From: a virus
Reading direction: 5' to 3' (one strand)
Length of the DNA stretch: 64,000 bases
IMG/VR virus record: IMGVR_UViG_3300008120_000139
Span: 7,658-71,657 of that record
Each line of letters begins with the position of its first letter. Within the stretch, counting starts at the first letter, position 1. The notes under the pieces are model-generated. The model did no database searches, was not told the origin of the DNA, and saw only the letters and a program-made list of their open reading frames with translations. The position numbers and the translations under genes were made by a program. Of this stretch, positions 6,055 to 34,380 are shown piece after piece.

Positions 6055-9000
6055 TTATGTTCCGCTAGATGTAATAATAGTGCTTGTTGTTTTTAATTGT
6101 GTTGCTGTAATAGCATCAACAATTTCTATATCTTCTACTGTAGTTCCATTTATAAAAATTTCATCTGATTGACTTGCTATTTCATAGAAACTGCCGAATC
6201 CTGCATCAGATTTAGGAACAATAACAAAATTTGTTATGTCCGGTGTTAAGCTGTTCATAACATATGTTGCTAGTTCACTGAAGTAAAAACTTTGTCCAAA
6301 ATCCCAATTTTCTAATGCAAAAAATTCTTCGATAGCAACTAGTATTCGAGATCTTAAATTACTATCACTTGATACATTATTTGAATTTCTAACTGCTTTA
6401 AATGTTGCTCTTAAATTAGTATCTGCTTTGTTGCCAAATAAAACTTTATATTTTACAGGATGAAAAATAATTTCATCACTAATTGCTTTAATTTCATTTA
6501 GTTTTGATCCGTAGTTAATTTCTAAATTTTGACTAGTTGGTGCTACAGGTTTTGTATCTGTAGAATTAGATAGCCATGATCTAAATTCTAAATCATACGA
6601 CAAGGTTAACATATATACGTCAATTATGTTTGTTTTACTAGGATCGATACGTCTATCATAAGTTGCATTATGGATATAATGAAATTTTAAATCTGACCTT
6701 CCTGTTTTTCCAAAATACTGATCTGTATACACTAATGAACTAGTTAATGTTGACCAATATTTCACTACATTAATTGATGGATTATAAAAATAATAAAGAG
6801 AATTATCAACAATTAACGACTGGTTAGGATTACTAGTAAAAAATTCAACCTCTGAAGGATACGCAGTAATTTCATCAGATGTTAATTCATATCTAAGTCC
6901 GTCGGATAGTTTCTTAAAGTACAAAAATTTATCTCTATAACCGTTAGTAGATATAGTAAGAGGTTGAACAATATTATTAAATGAATCAGGATCATTAATT
7001 TGTCCTGAATTATTAAAATCATAAAAGCTTACATTAACTTTATTTGGTTGAATATACCCGTCAGTTTCAACAATTGCGCCATCAACTTGCCATGTATAAT
7101 CTAAACCAATTGATGTTGTTGACGTTGAATTATAGTTTATTGATAATACATCAATTTTATCTTTAACAATAGAATTTGAAGAAAAATCATAGTTAATAGA
7201 ATTTTTTTCTACATGGAAAGCTGTTTCAGCTTGACTTTCAAATACATAATTTAAAAGTCTATATCTAATTCTATATTTTTTTCCATCCCATACAAATGCA
7301 ATTAACCAGCTTGAATCTAACCCCGCATCTTCAGTGTTTCCTTGATCATATAAACTAAAGCTCGAAGTTAAATTTAAATTTGAATTTAAAATTATATCCC
7401 AAGCTCTAGAATTTTTATCTATAGTTAAACCAAAGTTTCTTTTTGCAAGACAAATATTTACAATTTCATTTTCTATCGAGAAAGGCAAAATAAAAACATA
7501 TTTAGGAATTATTTCAGTTGGTATTGTGCCAGTAGGAACTCGTATAGATAAAATAATTGGCCCTGTTCCGTCGCTTAATGTTCCTGCACCGTTATTTGAT
7601 CCGTCTTCAACTACCTGTGCAACATTTGCCCATACATACATTTTTCCGCCTGTAGGAATTCCTGATGTAGGAATTGATTTTAAATTATTCTTTGAATCAA
7701 GATATTTTCCATACGGTGCTTGAAATTTTACCAATGCTCCTGGTTTAAAATATTTTAAATTGTTACCTGTGTAATCACCTACAGATACAGGAGAATTTTG
7801 TGAAGTTAAATATCCTCTACTTTGTCCCGGAGTTTTATTAATTTCTGTCCAAGATAAATTTAGATCGGAAATACCTATCCTAGAAAATTTATCCATATAA
7901 AAAGATTTTAAAGAACTGCTAGCTATAATAGATGCAAGTTCATTTTTTATGATAGGCAAAATTTGATTTCTAGAATTAAATTCAAATTCTAAATATTGTT
8001 CTTTTTCATCTTGATATAGCATACCATCTGATGCAAAGATATTAGTACTACTATACTTGCCACTAACATCTGATATGTCAAAATAACGACTTAATCCACT
8101 TGAAATTCTGTTTATACTTTTAACTTTTACAACATCTGTACTAGCAGTTAGTGGCCCTATGTTGTAGTCTTCTCCAGTTATCATTCTATTTTGAATGTAA
8201 TAATTTTGAGGAGCCTTAAGTTGTATACTTGCATTTGATTCTGGACCAGAACTATTTCTTACAGAATATTGTAAACTTAAAGTAATTTGTAATGAATGTT
8301 CTTGTCCTAGTGCATTTATATAAGGAATTGTAATCAATACACCACTCATGTTTTCAGGTTTGATTACATATGTTTGTGCATTGCTTTGTCTATAAAATAA
8401 TCTAAATTCACCTTTAGGAAGATCGCCAAATACACCGTCAGTGAAATTTAAATCAATTTGATCTTCATCTCTTGTTGATACTGCAAAGATTGTTCTTATG
8501 CCTTTATTAACACTATTATAGATTATATTATTATCATTATAAGCTATAGATTGAACTAATGTCCATAGGGTAGAAAAATTACCATCCTTATCTAATTGCC
8601 ATAACCAAATATCACTATTATTAATGTTAGGGGCGTTAATTCCAATAATTTCATTTGGTACAGGATTTTCAATATTAAATTGAGAAACTGCTAATGTACC
8701 TTGCCTAAAATGAATAAAAAATCCCGAGTTAGCACTAGCTGATCCTTGATTATCGTTTCTATAAAGGAAAGAAAAAGGTGCAGCTGGTTTAGGAGTAGTT
8801 TCGTAAATAGAATCTTTACCTGTAATGGAACAGGGAACAATTTCAAAGGGCATCGAAACGCCATTGATAGATTTTGTAAATGAATAAATTGGAGTATCTA
8901 CATTCGAGCTGTTAATAGCATATTGTTCAGTTAACACACCGTCAATTGTATTTCTATCTACAGGAGTACCGAAATTGCTCGACATTGACGAATTTAAAAT

Positions 9001-16830: not shown

Positions 16831-16859
16831 TTGACATTGTTTTTTTCAATTGCTATAAT
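16831..16859 (+). promoter_or_regulatory. Consensus sigma70 promoter with extended -10
   Basis: TTGACA (16831-36), 17-bp spacer, TGc-TATAAT (16851-59); AAGGA SD then ATG at 16886. Confidence 0.85.
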
Positions 16860-16885: not shown

Positions 16886-17730
16886 ATGACCGTAACGTCC
16901 CCTATAATAAAAAAGGTAAAATATCTAAATAATCGAGATTTACTTGCAGAAATTCATAAAAGTAAATGTAGTTTTTCGAGCTTTAGCAAAAAAGAATATA
17001 GTCAACATGACTTAATCTTAACGGCAATAGATAAAATTAATATACGAACAATAGCAGAAGCTAAACGAAATAGAGCAAAAAGAATAGGTCTACATTTATT
17101 TGCAGAACTTAGAGAACAAGGCGACAAAAAAACTAAACTTTCTGAATGTATTCCAGACTATCACCAGGACGTAAGAAAACTACTAAAACTACTGCCGATA
17201 GTCACGATAAAGTTAATTTTCCTCCTTTTCAACATTGGAAATTTAATGACGAAGATGAATTAGAATGCGTAGGTAAAAGCCATTGGCGTGGTACAATTGC
17301 TAAAGGTAAATTTAGTAAAGATCATGGAAGAATTACTGAAGAACTAGGAAAAATGTTTTTAAAATTAGCAGATAGATATGCTCAACGTGCTAATTGGAGA
17401 GGCTACACTTATATAGAAGAAATGAAGGGACAGGCTATACTTCAACTAAGTCAAATTGGTTTACAATTTGATGAATCAAAATCCGAAAATCCTTTTGCAT
17501 ATTATACTGCTGCTGTAACAAATAGCTTTACTCGTATCCTAAACATTGAAAAGAAAAATCAAAACATTCGAGACGATATGCTAGAAGAAGCCGGTCTAAC
17601 TCCAAGTCTGACTCGACAATATCAACAAGAATACGCAGAAGAGACAGCACGGCAAGCTGAACTATATAAAAACTTCAGAATGCCAAAAAGTGAAGAAAAT
17701 ACTGATACAGAAGAAGACGAAGAACCTTGA
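16886..17730 (+). pseudogene. gp55: gp55-like late-transcription sigma factor split into two overlapping frames (16886-17263 and 17146-17730)
   Basis: ORF1 has the gp55 N-terminal YLNNRDLLAEI motif; ORF2 (-1 frame) has the core ANWRGYTYIEEM...FDESKSENPFAYYT and an acidic tail; gp55-gp47-gp46 synteny. The break may be an assembly error. Confidence 0.7.
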
Positions 17731-17755
17731 CTTTATTGTTTCTACTTGCTACACT
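17727..17755 (+). promoter_or_regulatory. sigma70-type promoter for gp47/gp46
   Basis: TTGACT (17727-32), 17 bp, TGc-TACACT (17747-55); AGGAG SD before ATG 17775. Confidence 0.65.
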
Positions 17756-17774: not shown

Positions 17775-18788
17775 ATGTCCTTGTTTAAAAAGGTAGCTTG
17801 TTTTACAGATATACATTTCGGGCTTAAATCAAACTCAACAACTCATCTAAACGATTGCGAAGAATTCGTTGATTGGTATATTGCCGAAGCAAAAAAGGCT
17901 GGATGCGAAACTGGCATCTTCTTAGGAGATTGGAGTCACAATCGTAACAGCCTTAATCTAATTACACTTGATAGTAGTATCCGCTGCTTAGAAAAGCTCG
18001 GTGCTGCATTTGAACAGTTTTTTTGGTTTCCAGGAAATCACGATTTGTTCTATAAAGATAAACGTGATATCCATAGTTCAGCATTTGGGCGGCATATTCC
18101 AGGCGTCACTGTAGTCGAAAATGTAACTACCATAGGTGATGTGACTTTAGTACCGTGGTTGGTAAGTGACGAATGGAAAGAAATCAGCAAAGTTAAAAGC
18201 CGATACATGTTCGGTCACTTTGAACTACCATTGTTCTATATGAATGCGATGGTTCAAATGCCCAATCACGGAGAACTTCAACTTGAACACTTCAAACATC
18301 AAGAATATGTGTTTAGTGGTCATTTTCATATACGACAAAATCGTGGAAAAATTTGGTATATAGGCAATGCGTTTCCACATGATTTCGGTGACGCCTGGGA
18401 CGATAAACGTGGTATGATGATTTTAGAATGGGGAGGAGAACCTCAATTTATTGATTGGCCTAACTGTCCTAAGTTTAGAACTATTAACCTTAGCGATCTA
18501 ATTGATAAAAAAGATACAATAATGAAAAGTAAAATGTATCTGAGAATTAATCTAGATATTGATATCAGCTTTGAAGAAGCTAATTTTATTAAAGAAACAT
18601 TTAGCAACGATTACGATGTTAGAGAAATTAGCCTAATACAAGACAAAATAAGCTTAGATACCACAGTCGACGATAACCCAGATACAAAATTTGAAAGTGT
18701 TGATCAAATAGTTACAAAAAGTTTAGTTGCAGTCGAATCGGAACAGTTTGACAAAAAAGTTTTATTAGATATCTACAATAATTTATGA
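17775..18788 (+). CDS. gp47: Recombination endonuclease subunit, Mre11/SbcD-like
   Basis: Metallophosphoesterase motifs DIHFG, GDW, GNHD, GHFE, SGHFH. Confidence 0.92.
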   Translation: MSLFKKVACFTDIHFGLKSNSTTHLNDCEEFVDWYIAEAKKAGCETGIFLGDWSHNRNSLNLITLDSSIRCLEKLGAAFEQFFWFPGNHDLFYKDKRDIHSSAFGRHIPGVTVVENVTTIGDVTLVPWLVSDEWKEISKVKSRYMFGHFELPLFYMNAMVQMPNHGELQLEHFKHQEYVFSGHFHIRQNRGKIWYIGNAFPHDFGDAWDDKRGMMILEWGGEPQFIDWPNCPKFRTINLSDLIDKKDTIMKSKMYLRINLDIDISFEEANFIKETFSNDYDVREISLIQDKISLDTTVDDNPDTKFESVDQIVTKSLVAVESEQFDKKVLLDIYNNL

Positions 18789-20566
18789 GCTTCTTAATTA
18801 AAAATATTACCGTGAAAAATTTTATGAGTGTGGGTAACCAAACTCAAGCAGTGGATTTTGATCAAGAACAATTAACATTGGTATTAGGTAGCAATTTGGA
18901 CCTTGGTGGAGACGATTCTGGTTCAAGAAATGGTACTGGAAAAACAACTATTATCAATGCATTGAGCTATGCACTTTACGGTCAAGCATTAACAAATATC
19001 AAAAAAGAAAATTTAATCAATAAAATCAATGGAAAACATATGCTTGTTACCGTTGAATTTATAAAAAATAATAAAAAATACAGGATCGAAAGAGGTCGAA
19101 AGCCTAATATCCTAAAACTGTTTGTTGATAATCAACAAATTAAGGCCGAAGATGACGACGAAAGTCAAGGTGATAGCCGAGAAACTCAAAAATCTATTGA
19201 GCAACTATTAGAACTAAGTCATACTATGTTCAAACACTTAGTTGCGTTAAACACATATACTGAACCTTTTTTAAGTATGCGAGCGGCAGATCAAAGAGAA
19301 GTAATTGAACAACTTCTTGGCATCACATTATTGAGCGAAAAGGCCGAAATACTTAAAGTTTCAGTTAAAGAAACTAAAGATGCTATACAACATGAACAAT
19401 ATAGAATAGAAAGTGTTAAAACTGCTAACGAAAATGTGCAAAAAAGCATTGATAGTCTTAAATTAAAAAGTTCTGCCTGGGATAAAAAGTTCCAACAGGA
19501 CATAGAAAACACTGCTAAAGCCATAATGGAGTTAGAAAATGTTGATATTGAAAAAGAATTAGAAAAGCATTTACTTTTAATACAATGGTTAGCCAACGAT
19601 GCAAAGCTTACAGTACTAAAAAAACAACAAGCAACATTAGAAAATGCTGTTACTCAAGCAGGAAAAACCTGTGACAAATATTCTAAAGAGTTAGAAAAAC
19701 TAAAAGATAAAACTTGTCCAGCATGTGAACAAGAACTACATGATCATAAACATGACGAAATGGTCGCGCTGGTTCAAAAAAATCTCGAAGATGCAAATAC
19801 CTATGCTAAAAAAGTTATCAACGATTACGGATTGATTGTTAACGAAATAGAAGCAATCGGCGCATTAGGTAAAAAACCTTCTACATTTTATGAAACAGAA
19901 AAAGAAGCTTTAAGTCATAAAAATAATCTTGAGCAACTAAACAAAACTTTAGAATCAAAATTAACTGAAAAAAATCCCTATGATGAACAAATCATCGAAC
20001 TAAAGAAAACAGCTATACAAGAAATATCATGGGATAAGATTAATAATCTATCTAAATTACGTGATCATCAAGAGTTTTTACTAAAATTATTAACTAATAA
20101 AGATAGTTTTATACGTAAAAAGATTATAGATCAAAATTTATCATATCTTAACAAAAGATTAGGATATTATATTGATAAGTTAGGATTACCGCATCAAGTT
20201 ATTTTTCAAAATGACTTAAATGTTCAAATAACACAGCTAGGTCAAGATTTAGATTTTGATAATTTAAGTCGTGGAGAGCGTAACAGACTAATTTTAAGTA
20301 TGAGTTTTGCTTTCCGAGATGTCTGGGAAGGTTTATATCAACATATCAATTTATTGTTTATTGATGAATTAGTTGATTCCGGAATGGATTCTGCTGGGGT
20401 TGAATCAGCCATTGCCATCTTAAAGAAGATGGCCAGAGAAAGAAATAAAAATATCTATCTAATTAGTCACAAAGATGAGCTAATTGGTAGAGTTAATAAT
20501 GTTCTACGTGTAGTAAAAGAAAACGGATTTACAAATTATTCCAATAATATAGATTATGTCGGATGA
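18785..20566 (+). CDS. gp46: Recombination ATPase subunit, Rad50/SbcC-like
   Basis: KNFMSVGN, Walker A RNGTGKTT, coiled coil with CPAC zinc hook, signature LSRGE, Walker B LLFIDE, ISH. Confidence 0.93.
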   Translation: MSFLIKNITVKNFMSVGNQTQAVDFDQEQLTLVLGSNLDLGGDDSGSRNGTGKTTIINALSYALYGQALTNIKKENLINKINGKHMLVTVEFIKNNKKYRIERGRKPNILKLFVDNQQIKAEDDDESQGDSRETQKSIEQLLELSHTMFKHLVALNTYTEPFLSMRAADQREVIEQLLGITLLSEKAEILKVSVKETKDAIQHEQYRIESVKTANENVQKSIDSLKLKSSAWDKKFQQDIENTAKAIMELENVDIEKELEKHLLLIQWLANDAKLTVLKKQQATLENAVTQAGKTCDKYSKELEKLKDKTCPACEQELHDHKHDEMVALVQKNLEDANTYAKKVINDYGLIVNEIEAIGALGKKPSTFYETEKEALSHKNNLEQLNKTLESKLTEKNPYDEQIIELKKTAIQEISWDKINNLSKLRDHQEFLLKLLTNKDSFIRKKIIDQNLSYLNKRLGYYIDKLGLPHQVIFQNDLNVQITQLGQDLDFDNLSRGERNRLILSMSFAFRDVWEGLYQHINLLFIDELVDSGMDSAGVESAIAILKKMARERNKNIYLISHKDELIGRVNNVLRVVKENGFTNYSNNIDYVG

Positions 20567-20879
20567 AGAATTAAAAAAATACCAAGCATTGTATTCAAAA
20601 TTTTTAGAAGAAGTAGTTAATTTACATAAAGTACATATACTTTTCTTAAAATTTTATGGTCGCAGAACCAAATTCGACATACATCGTATTAACAAGAGCA
20701 TAATTACGATACAAAAAGAATTACATAAAAGTAGCACTAGAGCGTATGACGAGCATCGTAATAATACTAAAGAAAAATTGGCTAATAAACGTTTAGAACG
20801 TGCTCACAGAAAAGCAAATCCGTTAAAGCGTGGTCCAAAGAAAAAGAATGACATGGGTACATCAGAATCAAACAGTTGA
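20556..20879 (+). CDS. Hypothetical basic helical protein
   Basis: 107-aa ORF overlapping both neighbours in the operon. Confidence 0.65.
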   Translation: MSDEELKKYQALYSKFLEEVVNLHKVHILFLKFYGRRTKFDIHRINKSIITIQKELHKSSTRAYDEHRNNTKEKLANKRLERAHRKANPLKRGPKKKNDMGTSESNS

Positions 20880-21276
20880 TACATTACCGGAAGATTGTGT
20901 AGGTTTTGTATATATCATTACGAATCTATCAACTGGCAAAAAATATATTGGCAAAAAATTAAGCAAATTTAGTAAAACGACCTACAAGACTGTAAAGTTA
21001 AAGAACGGCAACAAAAAACGTAAAAGAATCAAAAGCAAAATAGAATCAGACTGGCAAACTTATTATGGCTCAAACACACAATTAAACGAAGATGTAAAAC
21101 AATTAGGCACAGATAAGTTCAGTAGAGAAATATTATATTATTGCAAATCAAAAGCGGAGTGCTCTTATATAGAAGCAAAACTTCAATTTGAATACCGTGT
21201 ATTAGAATCAGACGATTATTACAACGGCCACATTCAAGTCCGCGTCCATGGCTCACACATAAAATCTAAAATTTAA
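20848..21276 (+). CDS. Small GIY-YIG family endonuclease
   Basis: GFVYIITNLSTGKKYIGKK (GIY-YIG variant), SDWQTYYGS, FSREIL, YYN; ATG at 20848 (MTWVHQ) preferred over GTG 20830. Confidence 0.8.
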   Translation: MTWVHQNQTVDTLPEDCVGFVYIITNLSTGKKYIGKKLSKFSKTTYKTVKLKNGNKKRKRIKSKIESDWQTYYGSNTQLNEDVKQLGTDKFSREILYYCKSKAECSYIEAKLQFEYRVLESDDYYNGHIQVRVHGSHIKSKI

Positions 21277-21284
21277 TCTAACAC

Positions 21285-21756
21285 TTAAGGTTGGCGGGCC
21301 AGTTTGTAATGCCGCTGTGGAAAACCCGGGGCAGAAACCGGACACGTAACATAGTGATGTACTCCCGTCGGTAGATCCGACTATCCTGAAAGATGGAAGT
21401 GAGTCTGAGAGCACGAACCCTTATGCTCGACACGTTGCTATAGTATGAATGTTAGCATACGAAAAACCGTGCTATAAAAACTTAAACACTAGGAACGAAG
21501 TTTAAGGCGCTTGTTAAGCGAGTCGATGTAGGTTGGGAAAGGTTAGAGCCCATTAGCAACACGGTAAAATACCTACTTCCAATGTCTTGGCTGGGTGCAA
21601 CTCACATGAAAAAGACTTGATGGAACCTGCAAAAGGTTCCGTCTGACCGAAACAATCTACATGAATATTAGTTTGCTTCGTGTTACTTCGCAAAAATTCA
21701 TAATAAAAAGTTGCTCTGAATCGAAGATGAAAGAGCAGGAGAGATACTCTCTCCTT
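21285..21756 (+). ncRNA. Candidate large structured non-coding RNA of unknown class
   Basis: ORF-free and visibly GC-richer than flanks; more than 12 complementary segment pairs, e.g. GATGGAACCT/AGGTTCCGTC (21619-43), CTTAAAC/GTTTAAG (21481-506), GTAGGT/ACCTAC (21528-33/21571-76), GTTGCTA/TAGCAAC (21434-40/21554-60). Strand inferred from G-U pairs and operon direction. Confidence 0.7.
21737..21756 (+). terminator. Hairpin closing the structured region, possible terminator or 3' end
   Basis: AGGAGAGA-tac-TCTCTCCT; U-tract weak. Confidence 0.4.
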
Positions 21757-21801
21757 AATCAGTTAAAATAAATAAATAAAATAAAACTTTTAGGACTTGC
21801 T

Positions 21802-24090
21802 ATGACTAAATTTGATACAACTATCTACAGATTCCCCTTACTAGAGTCAGTTTATAAAAATGCTAACCCAAGATTAGCACAAGATCTAGTAATAATGAGA
21901 GAGAATTTCTTAATTCCCTACTATCGTTATCTAGATAGTTTAACTAGATTTCATATCTTTGAGGGTAAACCTGTAGAAGATACAAATGCATTATTCACTG
22001 CAATTAAGAAAGAAATCGACGGCGGTACAGGAATCCATGGTAAAGCTAATTTAACATTTATTGGAAAAATTGTTGAGAAACTAATGCCCGCAGCTATGGC
22101 AGATAAGTTTTTCAAAGGTCTTCCAGATCCTGCAACAAGTCAACCAGTTCAAAATTACGATGCACAAGCACAAAAAGCAATTAGTGCAATGCCTCCTAAA
22201 GCCAAAGCTGATGCACAGCAACTAATTGCAGTCGGTAAGAAAAATGCCAAATTACAAGGTTATATTGTAGGTGCGTTGACTGTAGGATCACAAATTCTTG
22301 CTAAATTTGGAGGTACTTACGGTGCTTCAATGGGCATTCCTCCACAACTAACTGGTGCTGTCATTGGTGCAATTAGTGGTGGTTTAATTGCTGGAATTGC
22401 TGCTAAGATGTATGGCAAGCCTTGGGGTGAAGCATTTAAACAAGGTATCAAAGGTGCCCTAGCTGGCGGCGCGGCTGGTGCTTTAGGCGGATTATTAGGA
22501 GGCGGTGCAACAGGAAGTAGTGGAGGCGGTGCATCTCCTGACCCTGCCGCGTTTGATCAAGCAGATAATTTTGTACCAGATGAACCTTCAGGGTCTGCTC
22601 CGACACCTGCTGCTAGTACCGGCAGCGGTGCAGGAAGCAACACACCTCAAATTGCAGGTGGATCTGGCGGTACACCTGAATTAGGCCCGCCTAGTGCTAC
22701 TACACCTGATCCTGCTTTACAAGGTACAACTGATAATTCTCCTGATGCTGCTGCGGCCGATCAAGCACAAGCAGATAATTACACACCTAATGAACCTGCA
22801 GGAGCTGCACCTCAGATGACGGCACCTCAAGTAATGCAATCTGATTGGTTTAGTCAATTAAGTCCGGAAGCACAACAATGGATGGGCAGTGCTGATAAGA
22901 ATGATCCTTTTATCCTTCAAAGATTAATTCAAGCAATTCCTAATGCAGCAAGTGTTATACCACCTGAATTAATTAGTCAAGACGCTATGAATGCTGCAAG
23001 AGGTGCGGTAAATGCCGCAGGTGGGCCGAATGTTGAAGAAAGTCGAGAAATAAATGTTAATCGTTTAGTCGAGCAGGGTATTGTTGACGCCAATGCAACA
23101 ATATTAACTTATCGAATTGCAGAAGCAGTTGGTCGTACAAGACCTCGAAGTGTCCAGTTAACTAATGAAGGTATTGGTGATATGTTTAAAAAGGCAGGGT
23201 CTTGGTTAAAGACTAAAGCTCAAAATGCCACACAAACAGTAACTGTTGATAAATTAAATCAAGCTTGGATGAAAGCAGGAAGCCCAAGCGATAGCGATCA
23301 AATTGCAGATATACTAAAAGCATCTAAAGTACCTGATACTGTTATTGCTAAAGTATATGCAGATATGGGTCTGCCTGCACCAGGTGGTACAGGTGCAGCT
23401 CAAGGTGGCGCAGGTGCAGCTCAAGGTGGCGCAGGTGCAGCTCAAGGAGATGAGCTTGATCAAGTAAGAAAAAATGCAGGAATGGGTGCATTTGGGCAAA
23501 TGGCCGGACAATTAGCATCTGCACCTACTACATCTAGCACGGGTGGCACAACAACCGGTGTTTCTGGAGTAGGTTCCGGAGTTGTTAAACATACAGCAAA
23601 TCCAAATAATCCAAATATGAAAGCAGCAGCTACACCTACTAATACAAAAGAACCAAGTAGTGCGCCTTCCGGCGGAACAGATGCAATGCGTTCAATGATG
23701 AATTTATTAAGTCCGCAGCCACAAAAACAAGGAAATAGTGCACCAGCAGCTCAACCAGCAGCTCCTAAACAAGCAGGCGCAATTCCAAAACCATATTCTG
23801 TACCTGGAGCAGTTACTCCTACAAATGTAAAATTTTCCGGCATGGCTGCTGGAAAGCCTGCTGCTCAAGCACCTGCGGCGCAACAAGCAGCACCAGAAGC
23901 ACCTCAAAAGAAACACACTGGCGGTAAAGTAGCTGGACAAGTAAGTCAAACTCCTAATGCAATTCGAAAGAGAGATGCACGGGCACAAAAAGCTATAGCA
24001 GCTGATAGAGAACGTTTATTACCTGATTACGGTGGTGTAAAAGAAAGTACTACTAAATTTTACAGTAAGTTTTTAGGAATAGAAATTTAA
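21802..24090 (+). CDS. Ala/Gly/Pro-rich low-complexity protein with glycine-zipper segments; possible internal virion protein
   Basis: 762-aa ORF with TAAATA motifs (21769-78) and AGGA SD upstream; GAVIGAISGGLIAG and GALAGGAAGALGGLLGGG segments. Confidence 0.7.
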   Translation: MTKFDTTIYRFPLLESVYKNANPRLAQDLVIMRENFLIPYYRYLDSLTRFHIFEGKPVEDTNALFTAIKKEIDGGTGIHGKANLTFIGKIVEKLMPAAMADKFFKGLPDPATSQPVQNYDAQAQKAISAMPPKAKADAQQLIAVGKKNAKLQGYIVGALTVGSQILAKFGGTYGASMGIPPQLTGAVIGAISGGLIAGIAAKMYGKPWGEAFKQGIKGALAGGAAGALGGLLGGGATGSSGGGASPDPAAFDQADNFVPDEPSGSAPTPAASTGSGAGSNTPQIAGGSGGTPELGPPSATTPDPALQGTTDNSPDAAAADQAQADNYTPNEPAGAAPQMTAPQVMQSDWFSQLSPEAQQWMGSADKNDPFILQRLIQAIPNAASVIPPELISQDAMNAARGAVNAAGGPNVEESREINVNRLVEQGIVDANATILTYRIAEAVGRTRPRSVQLTNEGIGDMFKKAGSWLKTKAQNATQTVTVDKLNQAWMKAGSPSDSDQIADILKASKVPDTVIAKVYADMGLPAPGGTGAAQGGAGAAQGGAGAAQGDELDQVRKNAGMGAFGQMAGQLASAPTTSSTGGTTTGVSGVGSGVVKHTANPNNPNMKAAATPTNTKEPSSAPSGGTDAMRSMMNLLSPQPQKQGNSAPAAQPAAPKQAGAIPKPYSVPGAVTPTNVKFSGMAAGKPAAQAPAAQQAAPEAPQKKHTGGKVAGQVSQTPNAIRKRDARAQKAIAADRERLLPDYGGVKESTTKFYSKFLGIEI
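23390..23447 (+). repeat. 21-bp in-frame tandem repeat, ~2.8 copies (GAAQGGA)
   Basis: caggtgcagctcaaggtggcg at 23390 and 23411, partial copy at 23432. Confidence 0.9.
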
Positions 24091-33619: not shown

Positions 33620-33632
33620 ATTAAATATAGTG

Positions 33633-33680
33633 TCTAGATTATTATGCGGTACCCACCGCGTATGACCCTAGAACGGTCGC
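33633..33680 (+). promoter_or_regulatory. Structured 5' leader: two hairpins and a possible pseudoknot
   Basis: TATGCGGT/ACCGCGTA (33643-62), TGACC/GGTCG (33663-79), loop CTAGA complementary to TCTAG at 33633-37; follows TAAATA 33622-27. Confidence 0.45.
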
Positions 33681-33699
33681 ATTATAAAGGAGAAAACAA

Positions 33700-34380
33700 A
33701 TGGGACGTCCAATTAAATCAAAATATTTCGGAACACGTAAAGGCCTAGGAGTTGCTGGTGAAGGTGTTCTTAGTGTTACAAATCCAGCAGGTACATTAGC
33801 AGGATTAGTAGCTGGAACTTATGCAATTCCTGCAGGTAGCATTGGTGCTCCACAAATTGCAGGAGGTTCAAAGCCATCACTAAATGTTGTAGCAACAAAT
33901 TCTACTACTTATACTGTTGCAGTTGTGTCAGCAGGATCAGGTTATACTAGTGCTCCAGCAATTACATTTAACGGTAGTATTGCTGGCGGTTCAGGAAGCG
34001 CTACACCTGTTGCTACTTTAACAACAAGTGTATTAAATATCATCGATTGTACCGCATATATTCCTACTGTTAACGGCGGAAGCAGTGCAGTATCGGGCGA
34101 TATTCAAGAACAAGTTGCTAGTAAAAAGTATCGTGTAGTAACTGCTCAAGGTACAGGTGCTTGCAAACTAGTTCCTACAGATTCATTAACAGCAGGCCAA
34201 ATGTACATTGGTGCAACAGACGTTAATGGTAGTACATACTTTGTTAAAAAGTTAACTGCTCGTCGTGCGGTATTAATACAAAATGTTGTAAATGGTTCGT
34301 TTGAATTTGCAGATAACGAAGCTGCTGGATGGACTTTAGATGCTGCTTCTGCAGGTGTTGTACAAATTGATAATAGATAA
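33700..34380 (+). CDS. Virion structural protein (possible head decoration protein)
   Basis: Gly/Ala/Thr-rich with AGSGYTSAP motif; own late promoter, AAGGAG SD and terminator, directly after the capsid gene. Confidence 0.6.
   Translation: MGRPIKSKYFGTRKGLGVAGEGVLSVTNPAGTLAGLVAGTYAIPAGSIGAPQIAGGSKPSLNVVATNSTTYTVAVVSAGSGYTSAPAITFNGSIAGGSGSATPVATLTTSVLNIIDCTAYIPTVNGGSSAVSGDIQEQVASKKYRVVTAQGTGACKLVPTDSLTAGQMYIGATDVNGSTYFVKKLTARRAVLIQNVVNGSFEFADNEAAGWTLDAASAGVVQIDNR

Follow-up and report, generated by a model that had tools for sequence, protein, structure and literature searches.

The window analysed here is a stretch of 64,000 nucleotides (nt) from IMG/VR virus record IMGVR_UViG_3300008120_000139 (positions 7,658 to 71,657), a linear record of 71.7 kb that is 20% complete and belongs to an uncultured giant lake phage whose complete relatives are T4-like phages of 345–364 kb. 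The subject is a large structured RNA with a hairpin tail, found on the plus strand immediately behind a GIY-YIG nuclease gene. According to the list of open reading frames (ORFs) and to family profiles, the gene order leading up to it is a late sigma factor, gp47, gp46, a small ORF and the GIY-YIG gene, and the genes of the locus matched the families phrog_100, phrog_77, PF19835 (SegE_GIY-YIG) and phrog_447. The gp47-like gene (Mre11/SbcD nuclease subunit; 17775–18788) and the gp46-like gene (Rad50/SbcC ATPase; 18785–20566), both on the plus strand and both identified by ORF and family match, serve here as context only. They are followed on the same strand by a basic ORF of 107 amino acids (aa; 20556–20879) and by the SegE-like GIY-YIG gene itself (20848–21276; 142 aa). 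Successive genes overlap by 4, 11 and 32 nt, just as an earlier note made from the sequence alone had described. The 107-aa ORF appears to be accessory, with tblastn matches in 19 loci versus the 216 loci with the nuclease. A consensus scan of the gap between nuclease and RNA found neither a σ70-type promoter nor a terminator, which agrees with that note's remark that none was evident there.

The RNA occupies 21278–21665 on the plus strand, is about 390 nt long and contains several pseudoknots, as delineated by folding and covariation. Its 5′ domain (21278–21460) includes a pseudoknot between 21278–21283 and the loop at 21450–21455, together with helices pairing 21326–21329 with 21338–21341, 21351–21357 with 21435–21441, and 21443–21447 with 21456–21460. 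The conserved structure begins at the first strand of this pseudoknot, 2 nt after the nuclease stop and not the roughly 10 nt given in the earlier note. The core (21471–21580) is composed of helices pairing 21471–21474 with 21554–21557, 21481–21484 with 21503–21506, and 21534–21537 with 21549–21552, and of two pseudoknots that pair 21525–21527 with 21542–21544 and 21528–21532 with 21572–21576; all of these elements of the 5′ domain and core were drawn from covariation. When 21277–21800 was folded and compared with shuffled sequences, the plus strand gave a z-score of −3.0 and the other strand −1.4. A 21-nt pattern taken from the window's RNA retrieved 80 loci, whose 77 full sequences reduced to 46 non-redundant homologues, and in these the helices show changes on both sides, including the 5′ pseudoknot and the core with its two more pseudoknots. 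In an alignment of the 3′ part (27 sequences), 96.3% of cells pair, 33 both-side changes were counted against 7.6 in shuffles, and pairing falls to 24–47% in slid controls, the structure having been derived from the same sequences so that the pairing control is biased in its favor. The element was marked as RNA on the plus strand because many G-U pairs occur there. The window's large RNA is a real structured RNA. It matched nothing in Rfam at the gathering threshold or at E values up to 10, and 14 further loci were likewise without an Rfam match; the covariance model of the Polynucleobacter-1 motif (RF01718) found no match in the window, and a blastn search with the window's RNA against cultured phages likewise returned none.

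At its 3′ end, the RNA carries a 7-mer twice, the two copies lying 47–65 nt apart around a hairpin. A twin-box search placed these boxes in the window at 21604–21610 (box 1, ACATGAA) and 21659–21665 (box 2, identical and 55 nt downstream), both on the plus strand, with a hairpin defined by covariation between them on the same strand (21619–21644). In 161 of 163 unique RNAs the two boxes agree in their first 6 nt (shuffled pairings: mean 29.8, maximum 48), a count to be read with the search pattern's three fixed positions in mind and after one of 164 rows had been dropped for lacking the pattern. Looser sampling showed that the box sequences differ between genomes, with 20 different 7-mers, some of them outside the search pattern. 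Mutual information ties each box to the other only, and by identity; it detected no third, complementary partner inside the RNA. Two other readings of the boxes were tried and rejected. The K-turn or box C/D consensus needs a GA that the variants lose, and the template-jumping of a reverse transcriptase, as in DRT2-like systems, found no PF00078 match in five large records where the control was detected, nor is the box spacing a multiple of three.

The RNA-type part stops at about 21665, and the sequence from 21672 to 21755 behaves like a series of DNA hairpins. The first (21672–21694, minus strand) has GAA-type motifs when read on that strand. The next (21713–21736, core 21718–21730, plus strand) resembles a primosome assembly site (PAS), with a stem, tandem G-A pairs, three base pairs (bp) and a GAA triloop. 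The last is a perfect 8-bp hairpin (21737–21755) that has a GTA triloop on the minus strand and also scored as a minus-strand terminator-like sequence. Loops of the GNA and GNNA types are stable in DNA rather than RNA, and GNA-triloop hairpins with stems of at least 6 bp occur 89 times in 158 tails (taken as the 130 nt after box 2), compared with 0.6 in shuffled sequence; the RNA bodies have none of them and 35 GNRA tetraloops. The arrangement of stem, tandem G-A, 2–3 bp and GNA-type loop (the tandem-GA hairpin) is present on the RNA's strand in 152 of 160 tails, at a median of 39 nt after box 2, against 0–3 in shuffles and 7 on the other strand. In the form with an outer stem of at least 5 bp, it is the sole copy in the window and in the large records G006 and G008, and one of two in the large record G009. 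Sampling by the tail first led back to the same element, since the RNA or its twin boxes lay upstream in 68 of 69 loci, preceded by a GIY-YIG gene in 59, by a PD-(D/E)XK gene in 7 and by a gene out of reach in 3. The element consists of two parts, an RNA and then a DNA-type hairpin tail on the same strand, and what is new here is this combination of twin identical boxes and a DNA-type tail on an uncatalogued large RNA.

Related elements were gathered from the nuclease side as well. The best 80 of at least 590 nuclease relatives included 78 with downstream DNA, and at 67 of these 78 loci the 560 nt after the stop cluster with the window. The 11 unclustered loci comprise seven with the RNA 1–2 kb further on, one repeat locus and three that end too early. 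Clustered loci fall into three exchangeable types, A, B and C (the window's), which have the 3′ module in common and resemble one another in their pseudoknotted core. In type A, the 5′ domain is the Rfam Polynucleobacter-1 motif, matched in 11 of the 16 related loci scanned, so that this motif belongs to relatives' RNAs at the same locus, with a twin-box module and tail like the window's. RF01718, however, spans only the roughly 140 nt of the type A 5′ domain, and the type C 5′ domain of the window differs from it. A model of types A and B scored only 15.3 bits (E 0.21) on the window's RNA, and because of this weak score the homology of type C to the others is argued from the shared modules and the locus. 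The accessible text of Weinberg et al. 2010 lists the Polynucleobacter-1 motif as a candidate cis-regulator (PMC2864571), and a literature search in which most subscription papers lay outside reach found no description of the RNA beyond that listing.

Carriers of the RNA range widely in size. Two complete and mutually related tailed phages, G001 (34.5 kb) and G003 (28.4 kb), carry type-C RNA (loci L281–L284) although they have no real protein family in common with the giant phages, and in G003 the RNA occupies the position in which one would look for a replication module. A comparison of small with large carriers, made to find a common protein partner, gave only spurious ORFs over the RNA and a 58-residue stretch of tape-measure protein. 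Three complete large records and one small one each have a single RNA module; in the other small phage the boxes were too divergent for the pattern used in this count. Divergent RNAs with the central core motif and weak type A/B model scores were noted around position 2500 of loci L199, L221, L237 and L227, the last with a GIY-YIG gene on the opposite strand. In bacterial genomes, 3 of 73 pattern matches were clear RNAs, all on phage-like contigs in metagenome bins, and there was one weak match besides. RNAs at L376, L391 and L402 lie on contigs binned as Flavobacteriales and Haliscomenobacter genomes, and the two Haliscomenobacter-binned contigs also carry gp46 and a GIY-YIG gene. These contigs are probably mis-binned phage DNA, and they give a weak hint of Bacteroidota hosts.

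The protein encoded beside the window's RNA is a typical member of its family. Its start was placed at ATG 20848; an alternative GTG at 20830 would give 148 aa. The structure model (pLDDT 90.7) is a single I-TevI-like catalytic domain in which the basic insert forms a long β-hairpin and which ends without a C-terminal domain, so that the earlier note's picture of a nuclease of about 142 aa with a basic insert and no C-terminal DNA-binding domain is borne out. The best structural match was the I-TevI catalytic domain (1ln0_A; Z 8.3, rmsd 2.7, 82 aligned residues); a Foldseek search with the model gave nothing at E up to 0.001, and sequence searches of solved structures nothing meaningful. Among 32 sequences, 32 columns are invariant, including Y22, Y33, G35, E109 and N126, which we take to correspond to residues of I-TevI, and the residue after the YIG motif is Lys, not Arg. 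Relatives occur in 479 cultured phage records, and the small size and basic insert that had made the protein seem specially minimal are ordinary for PF19835, the insert being present also in cultured homologues that lack the RNA. The SegE-like proteins of T4-like phages share family, size and basic insert with the window's protein, but four cultured homologues stand in other contexts, 148, 28, 0 and 87 nt from the next gene and with no such RNA. The label "NAD synthetase", given to phrog_447 in PHROGs and in many GenBank phage records, belongs to what is actually a GIY-YIG nuclease domain. In a sister group, gp46 is followed instead by an unrelated PD-(D/E)XK "RusA-like resolvase" gene (PF24608, phrog_244), seen in GIY-YIG's place before the RNA in L347–L357, L441, L457 and L461. 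That family was not found in three complete GIY-bearing genomes, and for this reason we suppose that the two nucleases may stand in for each other within the recombination operon, perhaps as enzymes that cut branched DNA. Such a replacement suggests non-orthologous displacement and a resolvase-like job for PF19835 proteins. Endonuclease VII was found in only one of the three complete large records.

Could the RNA work with this nuclease? The earlier note had raised that possibility by analogy with IscB and TnpB, casting the RNA as scaffold, guide or regulator, and frequent adjacency speaks for it: the nuclease lies beside the RNA in 76 of 80 type-C loci and, among the type-A/B loci that extend far enough upstream, in 63 of 71, in keeping with the 67 of 78 protein-first loci, and the basic β-hairpin of the model could bind nucleic acid. 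OMEGA systems join a RuvC (plus HNH) nuclease, IscB or TnpB, to an omegaRNA, and the likeness is that of a compact nuclease gene beside a structured RNA; the window's nuclease is GIY-YIG and not RuvC, its RNA does not co-vary with it, and there is no guide segment. Each component occurs alone. The RNA is without the nuclease in 4 of 80 type-C loci, from phages of 12–34 kb of which two are complete (whole-record search negative, positive control detected), and in 8 of the 71 type-A/B loci whose upstream DNA reaches 1500 nt or more, one of these probably a chance match; the nuclease is without the RNA in four of four cultured genomes (two RNA models, whole genomes, controls detected). As many as 11 of 12 PD-(D/E)XK loci carry the RNA, ten of them directly behind the stop, and in four of the RNA-carrying ones a GIY-YIG-like match at 30% identity turns up further upstream as well. 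RNA type differs in 63 of 124 nuclease pairs at 90–95% identity and in 6 of 37 pairs at 95% or more, nucleases 90–97% identical adjoin different types, and the nearest distinct relative of the window's nuclease (88%) adjoins type A. On a quick tree of 147 nuclease proteins, with many open forks, 37 changes of RNA type were counted, the labels being more clustered than in shuffles, as kinship would give. More than 150 nt, and often whole genes, separate nuclease and RNA in 50 of 202 loci. Among 22 close relatives no hypervariable, guide-like segment emerged; the least conserved 10-nt windows are 0.57–0.63 identical and fall in hairpin arms and linkers, and within three complete own genomes (host genomes were not searched) the RNA has no match elsewhere over 16 nt. 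Both the co-occurrence and the guide-segment checks that the earlier note had suggested thus came out against it, and an RNA-bound or RNA-guided GIY-YIG nuclease is very improbable. Only a little less improbable is that the GIY-YIG protein acts as a free-standing homing-type nuclease, cutting rival alleles and thereby exchanging RNA types with no RNA–protein complex. Its I-TevI-like fold, in which Tyr, Gly, Glu and Asn are invariant, would fit, as would a locus that serves as a recombination boundary, and T4 SegB offers a precedent in mobilizing a neighboring tRNA region, according to the accessible part of the source (PMC2330249). Against homing stand the missing C-terminal DNA-binding region, the strong conservation in a fixed slot, breakpoints that often fall between nuclease and RNA so that the two are not inherited together, and the alternative filling of the slot by a resolvase-like gene, which points to a housekeeping role in recombination. 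The nuclease is very probably a neighbor of the RNA and not its partner, and the RNA with its tail moves between phages independently of the upstream gene.

For the element itself, we put at about even the chance that RNA and 3′ tail together form an RNA-primed replication origin of the ColE1 kind. Under this proposal, RNA polymerase would read through the region and the RNA would fold during synthesis, presenting box 1; once box 2 had been transcribed, RNA box 1 would pair with the template strand of DNA box 2. The boxes would be identical yet free in sequence because of this pairing. It would nucleate a persistent RNA–DNA hybrid, from which the RNA, trimmed by host RNase H or using its own end, would prime the leading strand. 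The displaced sense strand would then fold into GNA-loop hairpins and load the replicative helicase or primosome, either via the host PriA pathway or with the phage's own DnaB-like helicase. As to transcription, a perfect σ70-type promoter (12/12) at 16831–16859 lies ahead of the sigma–gp47–gp46 operon and a weaker one at 17727–17755, and either could drive read-through into the RNA. Three small sets of metatranscriptome contigs gave no sequence of the RNA, a negative of no weight.

ColE1 provides the precedent. There, as the available text has it, an RNA of 550 nt stays hybridized to the DNA, RNase H cuts it, Pol I uses it as a primer, and helicase is loaded on the displaced strand (PMC5043065, where the way in which a folded RNA triggers a persistent R-loop is still called speculative); a G-rich stretch is needed, by the portion consulted of another paper (PMC6317783). 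The ColE1 record has two G6 runs, at 928–933 and 1175–1180. The upstream G-run of the RNA is said (Masukata and Tomizawa, 1990) to pair with the template of the downstream run, and the same logic applied to the phage element predicts that the twin boxes be identical, free in sequence and without an internal partner. The tandem-GA hairpin motif occurs once in the whole ColE1 record (NC_001371), at 1332–1342, which lies on the strand of RNA II and some 135 nt beyond the origin in the 3′ direction, and it is found at 2356 on the viral strand of phiX174, in the F–G gap; both sites are presumably primosome assembly sites. The phiX174 form, with an AA/GC internal loop, is also found in the tail of L214, the 11-mer of the ColE1 motif is identical in two tails, and large plasmids also contain that ColE1 segment by itself. 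PAS is described, in the part of the literature at hand, as a DNA hairpin of phiX174 that is found near the pBR322 origin too (PMC8246471). The phage element and ColE1 would thus share a folded non-coding RNA of several hundred nt upstream of the start site (here with covariation), a sequence with one copy inside the RNA and another toward its 3′ end, though in form only, and a downstream DNA hairpin of the stem/tandem-GA/GNA-loop design on the RNA's own strand, predicted to be of PAS type. They also share small carriers with no encoded initiator among the ORFs scanned: in 41 ORFs of the two complete small carriers, a set that did not include all of the longer structural ORFs, no polymerase, primase, helicase or Rep was found, nor any DnaB-like helicase in either phage. 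Small phages without replication proteins would suit a host-run origin. A search for RNase H (PF00075) found none in eight records, T4-type RNase H not having been searched for; a search for gp59 gave no match anywhere and carries no weight. In other respects the two systems differ, for the window's RNA has no sequence or Rfam similarity to RNA II, its repeats are a free 7-mer 47–65 nt apart where the G runs of ColE1 are about 250 nt apart, it has a multi-pseudoknot core with exchangeable 5′ domains in phages of 28–364 kb, and no dedicated promoter was found in the window. As for the phages' own kin, the R-loop origins oriF and oriG of T4 are likewise transcript-primed, in a T4-like phage, with A+T-rich DNA downstream and near a switch of the transcribed strand, according to what could be consulted of one source (PMC3016281). 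The earlier note had also mentioned an RNA-based origin or recombination element used with gp46/47; the origin is the part we favor, but we see no tie to gp46/47, and the small phages do without both genes.

Several observations weigh against an origin. No promoter was found by scan near the RNA 5′ end in the window, unlike the case of ColE1 RNA II (a σ70-like site upstream of the RNA was seen by eye in L150), and the box anchor, at seven base pairs, is short. Large relatives encode their own DnaB-like helicase (five of six records), which makes the need for a host PriA site less than obvious, and the tandem-GA hairpin with an outer stem of at least 5 bp is absent from the two small phages. 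The comparison with ColE1 and phiX174 was made after the motif had been seen. GC skew at fourfold sites follows the coding strand in both gene orientations, with the RNA strand, if anything, slightly more C-rich; as an origin locator, GC skew was discarded, being monotonic and linked to transcription. The origins of T4 are about 100 bp long, several per genome, with only a middle promoter and an unwinding element and no need of a folded RNA, according to the consulted part of the text (PMC3016281). A trans-acting large RNA (a scaffold, decoy or ribozyme) whose boxes are repeated factor sites or oligomer contacts, with the tail a separate terminator or regulatory cassette, is the less likely but still serious alternative. 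It gains from the elaborate exchangeable 5′ domains (A, B, C and others), which exceed what an R-loop needs, from the A-run that precedes the best hairpin in 74 of 157 tails, as the terminator of convergent minus-strand genes would have, and from the convergent genes that do follow in most loci; the homo-oligomers formed by GOLLD, ROOL and OLE, as the accessible text reports, are a precedent (PMC12286853). On the other side, a protein site hardly explains 20 box sequences that always match within the pair and change between close relatives, the tail loops are GNA/GNNA (GATA, GACA and GTTA being common) and not the RNA-type GNRA or UUCG, other gene ends have no copy of the tandem-GA hairpin, and a T-run follows the best hairpin on the RNA strand in only 11 of 157 tails. 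A self-processing ribozyme, derived from a group I intron or of another kind, with the twin boxes as its sites of joining or cutting, is highly doubtful. The helix order of group I introns, P3-P4-P6-P7-P3′-P8-P7′, is resembled by the type-C core, and two identical sites would suit a reaction using both. Yet no Rfam intron matched at E up to 10, no gene is interrupted and the flanking genes are intact, types A and B have no P3-like helix, and there is no internal guide complementary to the boxes.

Other features of the window were noted in passing. Two overlapping ORFs (16886–17263 and 17146–17730) share the late sigma factor (phrog_12791) between them, with about 30 profile positions missing between the matched parts and the halves closer together than in three complete relatives; either a deletion with frameshift or an assembly error would account for this. 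An ORF at 21802–24090 (762 aa), low in complexity and rich in Gly, Ala and Pro, is inserted after the tail and had no family match above the cut-off. It is preceded by TAAATA repeats, which we take to resemble T4 late promoters. A freshwater-2 RNA (RF02980) lies at 33624–33702, in front of an ORF at 33700.

For hardly any uncultured giant phage is the replication origin known, and few of the large bacterial RNAs that comparative genomics has brought to light have been given a function. The locus now comes off the list of candidate RNA-guided nucleases. The chances are slightly less than even that the RNA and tail represent a widespread and previously unrecognized class of RNA-primed origins in aquatic phages of 28 to 364 kb. 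Such an origin would give a function to Polynucleobacter-1, an orphan motif since 2010, and would mean that evolution had reached the ColE1 solution once more, through an RNA of unrelated fold and an anchor of free sequence. A pseudoknotted RNA of about 400 nt would then anchor itself on its own template, with a downstream cluster of DNA hairpins loading the helicase, and the element would be a natural example of a folded RNA that triggers a persistent R-loop.

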